DNA of 64,000 nucleotides, taken from positions 899-64,898 of the forward strand of contig CAZXNT010000003.1 in NCBI GenBank assembly GCA_964642155.1, given 5' to 3'. This stretch comes from an uncultured Candidatus Saccharibacteria bacterium (GTDB lineage Bacteria > Patescibacteriota > Minisyncoccia > UBA6257 > UBA9933). Positions 50,441 through 53,400 of this stretch are shown here, piece after piece; position 1 is the first letter of the stretch, and each line of letters opens with the position of its first letter. The position numbers were made by a program, and so were the translations under genes. Under the pieces are notes generated by a model. That model made no database searches. It had not been told where the DNA came from and saw nothing but the letters and a program-made list of their open reading frames with translations.

Positions 50441-53400
50441 TTATTTTAATTTTAATTTAACTTTAAATTCCAACTCGTCTACTTTTATCTCCTCGCCGTC
50501 GTTTTTCCCTCCTTCGCCAAGGCTACGGCGGGCAAGGGCAAATTTTATTTCGTTCGTGTTTGTGCCTTTTTTGATTTCGTTTTCAAAATCTTTAATGAAT
50601 TTTTCGCCTGCCTCGTTTGTTTCAATCACTAAATTTATTTTATCCTGCGGATTAAGGCCTGCTTTTTTGCGCAAATCCTGAATACCGCGCGTTAATTCTC
50701 TAACCATTCCTTCTTCTTTTAACTCTTTGGTAATTTTTGTATCCAATTCAATCTCGCTTTTAATTTTATCGTCAAAAATAATTTCTTTTACATTAATTTC
50801 GTCTTTAATTAAATCAAACAATTCTTTTTTATTTCTTAATTTATAATTCTTAATTCTTAATTCTGATAAAGGTTGACGAACCTTTATCTGCGCCCTCTGC
50901 CTTTCTTCCAACGCAACGGATGCGATTTTTCTCGTCTCGCTCATATTTTTTATCAACTCGGCCTCGTCCGCCGTAGCCTTGGCAAAAACAGGCCAATTCT
51001 CCAAATGCACTGATTCATAATTCTTAATTCCTAATTCTTGATTCTTAATACTTTGATATATCTCTTCCGCGATAAACGGCATAAACGGCGCGATTATTTT
51101 TGAAAGCTCTAACAAAACATAATGCAATGTTGCCATCGCATTTTCTTTATCTCCTCCTTCATTTTTAAACCTTTCCCGCGACCGCCTCACATACCAATTG
51201 GACAAATCATCAATAAAATCGCCAATCGGCCGACTCGCCGTGTCCAATTCATATTTATCCAACGCTTCCGTAATTTCACCGATCAAAACATTTAATTTTG
51301 CCAAAATCCATTTATCTAATATAGACGCGGATTTATACTGACTTAATGCTGACCTATGCTGACTTTTTCCATTTTGGTCAGTGTTCAGTCCGTATTGATC
51401 AGTGTATAATTTATAAAACGCCAAAATGTTTTTCAGCCGCATAATCACTTTTTTATGCGCTTCATCCACGCCTTTTTCCGAAAAAATAAGATTTTCCGCG
51501 GCCACCACCGGCGAAGTCAAAAGATAATAGCGCAATGCGTCCGCTCCGTATTTTTCCATAACCTCCATCGGGTCCGGATAATTTTTCAGACGCTTGCTCA
51601 TTTTTTTTCCGTCTTCCCCTAAAACAATTCCGTTCACAATGACATTTTTATAAGCGATTGAATTTTTCAGCGCCACGGCAATAATATGCAGATAATAAAA
51701 CCACGCCCGCGTCTGGTCCACGGCCTCGCCGATAAATTCCGCCGGAAATTCTTTTCTAATATAAGGCATTGAGCCGGAATCAAACCAAGTATCTAAAACA
51801 TCGGGAATTCTTTTCATCTTTCCGCCGCAAGCCTGCCCTGAGGACATTCGGCTGAGCTCAGTCGAAGCCCTTGTTGAATGGGTACAATCAAATTCAACTT
51901 CATCAATATATGGGCGATGCAAATCAATTTCATAATTGCCGTTATGGGGAAGTGGAACAAAATCAAGTTTTTGAAATTCTCCTGTTTTAATAAATTGTTC
52001 TTCTTTATTTTCTGTAATTTCCAACGCTTTATTAACATTGGCACCGATCGCTCCGGCGACCATGCACCAAATGGGCGCTTCGTGGCTTACAATTAAAATA
52101 TTTTTGTTTGAATATTTTTTATCAATATCGTATAAAAATTCGCTCACTCTGTTTTTTAATTGACTGAAATTTTCTCCATCCGGCGGAATTTTTTCAAATC
52201 TTTCTTTATGAGACGAAAAATAAGCGCGGTATTCTTGACTTGTTTTGCCGTCAAAAATTCCGAAATTTACTTCTCTTATTCGCTTATCAAAAATTATTTT
52301 ATCCCTGCTGATTTCCAAACTATCAGCGATCATTTTCGAGGTTTCTTCCGCGCGCAATAAATCAGAAGAAAAAATTAAATCAATTTTTTCTTCCGCCATT
52401 TTTTTTGCCGTTGCTAAAACCTGTTTTTTCCCGTTTTCAGTAAGATGATAATGATTCGTTTCTAATTTTGAATTTAAAATCCCCTTAACATTCTGTTCCG
52501 CTTCGCCGTGCCGCATCACAAAATATTTATTACCGGATTTTTTTATATTTTCTTTTAATTCATCAATAGAGCCGATTACCTTCATCGCCGCGCATTTTTC
52601 ACATTTCCAAATTGGAATCGCCGACGCCCAAAATCTCTGTCTGGATATTGACCAATCCCGCGCGCCTTCCAGCCATTTGCCAAAACGACCCTCTTTAATG
52701 TGAGCCGGCGACCAATTAATATCCTTCGCTAATTCCAAGGCCTTATCTTTAATTTTCAAAACGTTCACAAACCACGACGAAGTGGCGTAATTTATCAACG
52801 GAGTTTCGCACCGCCAGCAATGCGGATAGCTGTGCTCGTATTTTTCTTTGGCAAAAAGTAAATTGTTTTTCGCCAGATATTTTATTATTTCCACGTCTGT
52901 CTTCTGGTGGTCATCCATCGGCTTAACACTCATACCGGCAAAATCTTTCGCCTCCGGTTTAATAATTCCATCCATACCCACGTGCTGAATAAACGGCAAT
53001 TTATATTTTTGCCCCAAATTTAAATCGTCTTCGCCGAATGCCGGCGCGATATGCACAATCCCCGTGCCTTCGTCGGTCGTTACAAAATCCGCGCCATAAA
53101 TTTTCCAGCCGTTTTGGCCTTTTTTTATAAACTTTTCGCTAAATTCCTTACTTGTATTATCTATGCCCCCAGATTCTAAATTTAAACCACGAGAATTATA
53201 AAATTTGTAATAATAATCAAAAAGTGGCTCATATTCCTTACCAACTAAGTCTTTGCCTTTAAATTCATCAATAATCTCAAATTTTTCTTTAATAATTTCC
53301 AATCTCTCTTTCGCTAAAATATAAAAATTTTTTTCAATTTTAACTTTCACATAATCAATATCTGCGCCAACCACCAGCGCCACATTTCCAATCAATGTCC

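Follow-up and report, generated by a model that had tools for sequence, protein, structure and literature searches.

Why would a bacterial isoleucyl-tRNA synthetase (IleRS) carry a second enzyme inside its catalytic domain? The question is raised by ileS in the 64,000-nt stretch of DNA analysed here (the window, to whose positions all coordinates refer), a gene of an ultra-small patescibacterial organism. Few enzymes have been studied as thoroughly as aminoacyl-tRNA synthetases, and it is rare for a bacterial one to reveal a new catalytic module. An earlier interpretation made from the letters alone (the sequence-only reading) had placed a ~200-aa in-frame insert with histidine phosphatase motifs between the PIWKCEKC...SIDELKE and DLHRPYID segments of this gene, at 52040-52530. 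Here we describe this insert as a complete histidine phosphatase domain with a predicted intact active site, find that its relatives stand beside ileS as a separate gene in many other Patescibacteria, and propose that it is probably an active phosphatase serving as a dedicated IleRS partner.

A histidine phosphatase nested in a type-2 IleRS

The ileS open reading frame (ORF) lies at 50441..54064 on the minus strand and encodes 1207 aa from a TTG start at 54064 or 1201 aa from an in-frame ATG at 54046. The 1201-aa version is identical to the database protein P0001, and its numbering is used below unless the 1207-aa numbering is named. To assess conservation, the 120 best database homologues were aligned with MAFFT. 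They are 52-100% identical to the window protein and were drawn from NCBI, ENA, JGI and Logan assemblies, where their contigs reach 420 kb.

All motifs quoted in the sequence-only reading were found at the places given. In the 1207-aa numbering, PIWKCEKC occupies residues 484-491, SIDELKE 499-505, KYFVMRHG 513-520 and DLHRPYID 714-721, and the SH-containing motif lies at 656-666 (window 52067-52099). Pfam His_Phos_1 (PF00300), the family proposed as a test, matched residues 515-681 in the same numbering (~52022-52522) with E=3.4e-35 and 121.9 bits against a cutoff of 21.7. The match spans profile positions 2-167 of 194 and is far beyond chance. This Pfam core is what the range 52040-52530 covers; linkers included, the insert is wider and spans 51926-52549.

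The place of the insert was defined by alignment with the type-2 IleRS structure 8c8u, in which query residue 500 pairs with chain residue 477 and query residue 705 with chain residue 484, so that ~204 aa stand in place of a ~6-residue loop. The insert sits at the tip of the catalytic domain's second zinc-knuckle hairpin, between its two CxxC halves and ~45 residues upstream of the core element DTWFDSG. The insert had been assigned to a connective region; it does lie in the catalytic domain, but at this hairpin tip and not at the CP1/editing insertion. The main parts of the gene are:

50441..54046, minus strand: ileS, type-2 isoleucyl-tRNA synthetase with nested phosphatase (ORF, TIGR00392, P0001, 8c8u)
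52550..54046, minus strand: N-terminal part of the IleRS, aa 1-499 (motifs and Pfam)
53909..53920, minus strand: HYGH, the HIGH-type signature of the class I catalytic domain, aa 43-46 (motif position)
51926..52549, minus strand: inserted branch-1 histidine phosphatase with linkers, aa 500-707 (PF00300, AlphaFold2, Foldseek, 8c8u alignment)
51827..51925, minus strand: DLHRPYID and the second half of the zinc knuckle, C721...C740 (C721 in 117 and C740 in 118 of the 120 homologues)
51773..51793, minus strand: DTWFDSG, catalytic-core element (D752 and W754 invariant)
51590..51604, minus strand: KMSKR, the KMSKS-type loop, aa 815-819 (K815 and K818 invariant)
50465..51316, minus strand: anticodon-binding domain PF08264 (E=4.8e-34) and type-2 C-terminal domain PF19302/DUF5915 (E=6.3e-19)

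Judged by these elements, the host enzyme looks like a complete and fully functional IleRS. It scored 845.7 bits on the ileS equivalog TIGR00392 of NCBIfam (cutoff 621.4), the match being split into two stretches by the insert. Consistently, Pfam placed PF00133 in two stretches with PF00300 between them, followed by PF08264 and PF19302 (DUF5915). The closest solved structure is 8c8u (E=8.5e-201), with 8c8v and 8wnd also on top of the PDB ranking and type-1 structures (1ffy) far weaker. The C-terminal organisation is likewise of type 2, as DUF5915 is present and the C-terminal zinc-binding domain is absent. Across 54 homologues, the class I signature is invariant at H43, Y44 and G45 and at least 90% conserved at H46. 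The Trp of DTWFDSG presumably lines the isoleucine pocket, as in the T. thermophilus IleRS structure.

The N-terminal part (aa 1-499) comprises the first Rossmann/HUP half, the CP1 editing domain and the first zinc site (CTRC/CWRC), and it includes, in PIWKCEKC (52592-52615; C482 and C485 kept in 118/120), the first of the two CxxC halves of the second knuckle. All four cysteines of this knuckle are retained in 117-118 of the 120 homologues, on both sides of the insert. The CP1 editing motifs are intact: they are of the WTTTPWTL and GTG-x-VH-x-AP type, and W211-T214, W216, T217, G327, G329, V331 and H332 are invariant. Because these motifs are intact, the editing-related activity that had been suggested for the insert finds no support.

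Active site and fold of the insert

PF00300 is carried by all 120 of the nearest homologues, whose named sources include Wolfebacteria, Terrybacteria, Niyogibacteria, Lloydbacteria, Paceibacterota and Parcubacteria. The insert had been called unusual and perhaps lineage-specific; it is indeed spread across a clade, within which it is not rare. The RHG start and SH end motifs noted earlier are both present and belong to a set of near-invariant residues:

52505..52513, minus strand: RHG motif, R512-H513-G514, with H513 the predicted phospho-accepting nucleophile (R512 119/120, H513 120/120, G514 116/120)
52490..52492, minus strand: N519, phosphate-pocket Asn (120/120)
52352..52354, minus strand: R565, second phosphate-binding Arg (120/120; invariant in the standalone family described below as well)
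52271..52273, minus strand: E592, predicted general acid, in the motif REVNFG (120/120)
52082..52084, minus strand: H655, second catalytic His, in the motif IVSHE (120/120)
51926..51964, minus strand: conserved C-terminal linker rejoining the phosphatase to the IleRS (homologue alignment; predicted local distance difference test (pLDDT) ~90 in the full-length model)

G596 and R633 are likewise invariant. The linker residues F696, P700, H701, N702 and E706 are kept in 101-113 of the 120 homologues. Mean identity to the window protein is 0.54 for the insert, equal to that of the anticodon-binding and C-terminal domains (0.54), and 0.66-0.67 for the catalytic core. At the level of the alignment, these data show a predicted phosphoryl-transfer active site that is intact and under purifying selection.

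Structure prediction, also proposed in the sequence-only reading, gave a confident fold. The AlphaFold2 model of the isolated insert is a compact alpha/beta domain with a pLDDT of 92.4 and a predicted template modelling score (pTM) of 0.90. In a model of residues 1-1100 (pTM 0.79), the insert and both junctions have pLDDT values of 83-96, and the low-confidence parts are lineage-specific mini-inserts and the KMSKS loop. Foldseek matched the insert with a probability of 1.00 to many members of the superfamily, including PspA (4ij5/4ij6), PhoE (1h2e), 9mmh, HFP, Rv2419c, TIGAR and CobC. The top phosphatases aligned with template modelling (TM) scores of 0.67-0.76 over 176-212 columns, cap region included (0.73 for PspA 4ij6 and 0.75 for PhoE 1h2e), and true cofactor-dependent mutases superposed with a larger root mean square deviation (rmsd). 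Together with the PF00300 match, the stand-alone model and these nearest structures bear out the claim of a complete phosphatase fold.

Assignment to a subfamily was assessed with the NCBIfam equivalog models. The insert scored 80.7 bits on PspA NF045917 (cutoff 350), although PspA is its best PDB and Foldseek neighbour, 88.9 on the CobC alpha-ribazole phosphatase model TIGR03162 (cutoff 162.9) and 39.1 on SixA TIGR00249 (cutoff 74.5). The SixA alignment was restricted to residues 9-82 of the insert, which keeps its cap helices. On the models for cofactor-dependent phosphoglycerate mutase (dPGM) the scores were 99.9 bits for NF038349 (cutoff 225) and 27.2 for TIGR01258 (cutoff 81.7). Because all equivalog scores are under their cutoffs, we regard the insert as a superfamily member outside every characterised subfamily. 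From its fold and motifs, it looks like a small, capped phosphomonoesterase of the PhoE/PspA/CobC type and not like a phosphoglycerate mutase.

Database names reflect this architecture poorly. Most insert-bearing IleRS go by the bare PGAP name 'class I tRNA ligase family protein'; 'isoleucyl-tRNA synthetase' is the JGI label of two free phosphatases of ~195 aa (P0339, P0359). Given the nested architecture, we take both namings as annotation artefacts. Insert-bearing proteins are thus already in public databases under generic annotations, and metabolic reconstructions of Patescibacteria could miscount a nested PGAM-like domain as the glycolytic enzyme phosphoglycerate mutase.

The phosphatase as a separate gene beside ileS

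A search of the insert against 1.84 billion cluster representatives returned 16,361 matches at E<1e-3, 80 of them at E<1e-30. Among the best 150 matches, 96 were embedded in IleRS (full proteins or fragments with IleRS flanks); the remainder were fragments or genuine standalone proteins of ~190 aa with 36-45% identity to the insert. The standalone proteins share the ends of the insert, namely an N-x-YF-x-x-RHG start and a KTGE-x-x-KL last strand. We propose a subfamily of IleRS-partner phosphatases, standalone or nested, defined by an N-x-[YF]-[FY]-x-x-RHG start, a KTGE-x-x-K[LI] final strand and physical linkage to ileS. The window insert, with NKYFVMRHG, KTGEFQKL and its nesting in ileS, fits this definition.

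A profile of the standalone proteins retrieved a large patescibacterial family. In each of three members examined on long metagenomic contigs, the phosphatase gene lies directly upstream of ileS on the same strand. The downstream genes in those three contexts encode proteins of 931-956 aa with PF00133, Anticodon_1 and DUF5915, score 866-990 bits on the ileS equivalog, above its cutoff, and lack the insert.

We further scanned one genome per GTDB species, which gave 258 relatives, and examined the best 80 of the 258 loci; as closeness to the standalone family decided which loci were taken, the fractions that follow describe that family and not all Patescibacteria. The phosphatase gene was directly upstream of ileS at 51 of the 80 loci, upstream with a gap of 0.6-1 kb at 2, and nested inside ileS at 14. 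No ileS was seen at the other 13, of which 5 have too little flank to judge and 8 form one closely related subclade. Physical linkage to ileS is therefore present in 67 of the 75 informative species loci.

The spacing of the separate genes is equally characteristic. Of 56 separate-gene pairs, 26 overlap (21 by ATGA) and 25 have gaps of 0-20 nt; as far as gene arrangement can tell, such overlaps and short gaps are the signature of translational coupling. One of the overlapping pairs belongs to the cultured Minisyncoccus archaeiphilus (L031).

Genomes of the nested type keep the rplT-rpmI-infC / smpB / argS neighbourhood of the two-gene genomes. In them no phosphatase gene lies between argS and ileS, and in one (L088) argS is followed by ileS directly. 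The distance from PIW-C-x-x-C to D-x-WF is 62-65 residues in the adjacent-type IleRS and 258-265 in the nested type. By alignment and gene order, then, the orthologous ~190-aa phosphatase is a separate, apparently coupled gene in most related Patescibacteria and is fused in the lineage of the window.

In the eight-species subclade away from ileS (L012, L013, L015, L016, L018, L021, L023, L027), the standalone gene stands in variable contexts. Its phosphatases have a median isoelectric point (pI) of 6.7, compared with 9.2-9.3 and a net charge of +6.5 to +8 for the ileS-linked ones, and this subclade may have acquired a different role. The unlinked gene is often preceded by a nucleotidyltransferase-like gene (MSTKAIILAAGSS...).

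Origin of the nested form

Neighbour-joining (NJ) trees, built without support values, were computed for the IleRS core and for the phosphatase. In the IleRS-core tree, nested forms fall into two clades, each among adjacent-type lineages. One consists of the window protein and its 119 homologues, and the other of L017, L041, L048, L051, L054, L057, L059, L060, L076, L081 and L086. The phosphatase tree is broadly congruent with that of the IleRS core, and the window clade is monophyletic in it. This pattern suggests that the separate gene is ancestral and that nesting may have happened more than once. In both nested clades the phosphatase is inserted at the same hairpin tip and joined by a similar LP[HY]N linker; because of this shared insertion point and linker, and because the trees are without support values, we do not claim independent origins.

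The form that fusion takes is also informative. An ATGA overlap should make a read-through fusion mechanistically easy. Nevertheless, an N-terminal end-to-end fusion was found in none of the 150 cluster representatives, as against at least 64 nested forms. That no N-terminal fusion was seen despite an easy route to it speaks for the importance of where the phosphatase sits on the catalytic domain, or else of keeping the IleRS N-terminus free.

Possible function of the phosphatase

What, then, does the phosphatase do for its host? We consider it probable, from the genomic pattern, that it is an active phosphatase serving as a dedicated partner of IleRS, because it is linked to ileS either as the upstream gene or as the nested domain and the upstream slot is empty when it is nested. 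By analogy with the chemistry of the superfamily, H513 would attack a terminal phosphoryl group held by R512, N519, R565 and H655. A phospho-histidine would form and then be hydrolysed, with E592 as the acid that protonates the leaving group. The substrate would most likely be a small phosphomonoester, which we favour over a macromolecule because the two-helix cap is retained and the SixA alignment is limited to the first ~74 residues. It might be a nucleotide-type ligand or product at IleRS, such as an AMP-like or 2'/3'-phosphorylated adenosine compound, a low-confidence guess made because IleRS is the only conserved partner. Hydrolysis would take place beside the synthetase, the two activities acting as one unit.

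These parts of the proposal differ in strength. Within the partner reading, a small nucleotide-like substrate is a tentative choice, short of probable, and a tRNA-end or protein substrate is unlikely. A more specific picture, also unlikely, is that the phosphatase sits at the mouth of the catalytic domain and dephosphorylates an adenosine-type ligand or a tRNA-Ile 3' end blocked by a phosphate. Were this true, 3' ends blocked for example by host or phage toxins would be cleared and IleRS and tRNA-Ile kept usable, and the synthetase would possess, in addition to its synthetic and editing sites, a third site for quality control or repair.

Several points weigh against a dedicated partnership. 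The 80 loci, drawn by similarity to the standalone family, give no phylum-wide frequency of linkage; the eight-species subclade is not beside ileS; and conserved gene order can persist in very compact genomes without functional coupling. The insert is also below cutoff for all NCBIfam equivalog models of characterised subfamilies (dPGM, PspA, CobC, GpmB, SixA, RNase H/acid phosphatase). In addition, variants among the relatives suggest that surface loops of their IleRS are permissive to insertions, which fits a loose tethering better than a precise coupling. Tandem phosphatase copies occur in P0225 (two) and P0220 (four), and P0151 has two copies plus the start of a third in the anticodon-binding region; catalytic residues are kept in every tandem copy, except for an N-to-A change in the third copy of P0220. 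P0239 (1066 aa) carries a REP-associated tyrosine transposase domain (RAYT/IS200-like) inside CP1, plus His_Phos and GNAT. Because the loops tolerate insertions, the argument for an exact geometry is weakened.

The same variants lend themselves to another account, which we hold to be possible but improbable: a general metabolic phosphatase, acting for instance on phosphoserine or a sugar phosphate and functionally untied to IleRS, lay by chance upstream of ileS and was carried neutrally into a permissive surface loop, with tethering amounting to co-expression only. Many in-frame additions are tolerated, including the tandem copies, the anticodon-region copy, the RAYT and GNAT domains and the mini-inserts of the window protein; one standalone subclade is unlinked from ileS; and the nearest characterised relatives act on ordinary metabolites. 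Against neutral carriage, the pairing persists across IleRS lineages that are only ~50% identical, with a start/stop overlap in about half of the pairs. Moreover, the fused form is always nested and never an N-terminal read-through fusion among the 150 cluster representatives, nested forms occur at the same hairpin in two NJ clades, and the catalytic residues stay invariant inside IleRS.

More doubtful still is a macromolecular substrate, that is, removal of a 3'-(pyro)phosphate or some other blocking phosphate from the tRNA-Ile acceptor end, in repair or counter-defence, or dephosphorylation of IleRS after attack by a toxin kinase. The anchor on the catalytic domain, near core active-site elements in sequence, would suit such a role, as would the mostly basic character of the ileS-linked phosphatases (median pI 9.2-9.3) relative to the unlinked subclade (6.7). 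The superfamily also includes the protein phosphatases SixA, PGAM5 and Sts-1. The window insert itself, however, is neutral (pI 7.2), and AT-rich genomes commonly encode proteins of high pI. The full small-substrate cap is kept, and the match to SixA covers the first ~74 residues only and lies below cutoff. Two to four tandem copies are hard to square with precise docking on a tRNA end, and the histidine phosphatase superfamily is not known to include an RNA 3'-phosphatase.

It is very improbable that the insert is the cofactor-dependent phosphoglycerate mutase of the organism, riding on IleRS. The idea draws on the best NCBIfam match, which is the small archaeal dPGM NF038349 (E=1.7e-28), and on the glycerate kinase, pyruvate-phosphate dikinase (PPDK) and enolase genes within 8-15 kb of ileS in the window clade; PPDK would use up the AMP and PPi that aminoacyl-tRNA synthetases release. 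Yet both dPGM scores given above fall far below their cutoffs (99.9 vs 225 and 27 vs 81.7), and the closest structures are phosphatases, with true dPGMs at larger rmsd. The insert reads EVNFG and SHEAP after the catalytic Glu and His, unlike the dPGM-type motifs ERHYG and HGNS. Nested-type genomes have a distinct gene for a cofactor-independent phosphoglycerate mutase (iPGM; PF01676+PF06415) nearby, and adjacent-type lineages are without the glycolytic neighbourhood, so that we keep the link to glycolysis as a low-probability alternative only.

An assembly artefact or a decayed, catalytically dead remnant has a negligible probability: its sole ground is the metagenome-type source sequence, a chimera is excluded because the same architecture occurs in all 120 homologues from many independent assemblies of four sources, the insert is in frame with conserved junctions and shows no composition break beyond normal gene-internal variation, and its catalytic residues are invariant and its fold confident.

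We also considered a link to riboflavin, prompted by 9mmh, a histidine-family phosphatase of riboflavin synthesis, among the structural neighbours and by the place of ribF ahead of ileS in E. coli, and rejected it as coincidence, the similarity being no better than that to other family members.

The preferred reading of an active, dedicated IleRS partner points to an unrecognised biochemical need of isoleucine charging, or of nearby nucleotide or tRNA handling, in ultra-small symbionts. The phosphatase would be tied to the synthetase in two modes, as a coupled gene and as a nested domain, over much of a major, uncultivated radiation of bacteria. Since the cultured Minisyncoccus archaeiphilus has the two-gene form, the partnership is directly testable.

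Relation to known systems

In fold, size (~200 aa) and cap, the insert resembles PhoE/YhfR of Geobacillus (1h2e), PspA of Hydrogenobacter (4ij5) and CobC (6nru, 6e4b), at TM scores of 0.7-0.76. Its catalytic set is also that of PhoE, PspA and CobC: RHG, Asn, second Arg, Glu and second His. Unlike these free-standing metabolic enzymes, it is nested in IleRS or operon-coupled to it and forms its own subfamily. Joining of a branch-1 phosphatase to an enzyme of nucleic-acid metabolism has a parallel in the mycobacterial RNase H/CobC-like acid phosphatase (Rv2228c type, NF005567), which ranks second among the NCBIfam matches of the insert at 91.5 bits (cutoff 326). That protein, however, is an end-to-end C-terminal fusion with another partner, whereas the insert is nested in a loop of the catalytic domain of its partner.

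Precedents on the synthetase side are of several kinds. NF040702, 'ileS_w_GNAT', shows that a bacterial IleRS can house a further enzymatic domain, and P0239 holds GNAT and His_Phos together. There the GNAT domain is placed in the CP1 region, between profile positions ~266 and ~494 as judged from profile offsets; the window protein scored 314.9 on this model (cutoff 1999) and has no acetyltransferase Pfam match. The CP1 editing domain and the leucine-specific domain of bacterial LeuRS are likewise independently folding modules spliced into the Rossmann/HUP fold, where they cooperate with the synthetic site (scheme of the domains in bioRxiv 10.64898/2026.02.03.703510). Those modules, which are either universal or shared by a whole family, work on aminoacyl-tRNA or influence active-site dynamics, whereas the insert is a putative phosphoryl-transfer enzyme, is restricted to part of the Patescibacteria and also exists as a separate gene.

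The host enzyme is of the type-2, eukaryote/archaea-like, mupirocin-tolerant kind, like IleRS2 of Priestia megaterium (8c8u) and MupA/MupB, from which it differs by the ~205-aa insert. The window protein scored 689 bits on MupA and 708 on MupB, against cutoffs of 1900 bits. As these scores are far below the cutoffs, it is not a plasmid resistance enzyme.

A full-text literature search on IleRS and aminoacyl-tRNA synthetases, histidine phosphatase/PGAM, candidate phyla radiation (CPR)/Patescibacteria, Minisyncoccus and IleRS-GNAT returned no description of this architecture. Neither a phosphatase nor Patescibacteria are mentioned in a 2026 survey of ~96,000 IleRS sequences. A paper on altemicidin/SbzA concerns a biosynthetic IleRS and was set aside as not relevant. 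The component families are known; for the pairing of IleRS with a phosphatase, its nesting in the zinc knuckle and the alternation between operon and nested forms, we found no description.

Smaller insertions and neighbouring genes

Besides the phosphatase, the window IleRS carries several small insertions. A GC-rich in-frame mini-insert of 17 aa (aa 723-739, 51830-51880) interrupts the second half of the zinc knuckle between its cysteines. Most of its positions are filled in 2 of the 120 homologues, and up to 9 homologues have residues at its edges; pLDDT is below 50 for aa 729-736. It contains a perfect palindrome, TTCGACTGAGCTCAGCCGAA (51847-51866), that occurs once in the window. A lineage-specific insertion in CP1 (aa 281-300, ~53147-53206) is common to ~3-5 of the 120 homologues and also has a pLDDT below 50.

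A GC-rich 16-nt sequence, GCCAAGGCTACGGCGG, occurs at 50516-50531 on the plus strand and at 50968-50983 on the minus strand as exact, inverted copies about 410 nt apart. Both copies lie in the ileS coding region, and their arms extend to 32 nt at 81% complementarity (chance expectation ~0.2). One copy encodes a 10-aa insertion found in 1-3 of the 120 homologues. The pair could be a long-range mRNA stem or a small mobile element. We rejected the idea that the GC-rich elements are dispersed repeats in the window, since GCCAAGGCTACGGCGG is found twice, both times in ileS, and the palindrome once.

Downstream of ileS, an ORF of 107 aa (50114-50437, minus strand) starts 3 nt past the stop codon. 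It has no Pfam match and shows weak similarity (E 0.015-0.05) to phosphoribosyl-ATP pyrophosphohydrolase and MazG-like all-alpha NTP pyrophosphatases; in three related genomes it was not found downstream of ileS. Upstream lie ~280 nt of apparently non-coding DNA (54065-54340), an 83-aa ORF without a family match (54342-54593, minus strand) and an RmuC gene at 54625-55683. Unlike in related genomes, neither a standalone phosphatase nor argS was found upstream of the window ileS. Rfam and tRNA scans of the window returned tRNA-Leu and tRNA-Gln only, nothing that bears on the insert.

The glycolytic genes mentioned above lie 8-15 kb downstream of ileS:

34847-36193, minus strand: enolase
37983-40454, minus strand: pyruvate-phosphate dikinase (PPDK)
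41106-42437, minus strand: glycerate kinase (DUF4147+MOFRL)

Among the relatives, L088 and L089 have the glycerate kinase gene as the next one after ileS; in L088 the stretch further includes PPDK, enolase and iPGM. The proximity of glycolytic genes to ileS is probably clade-specific synteny.

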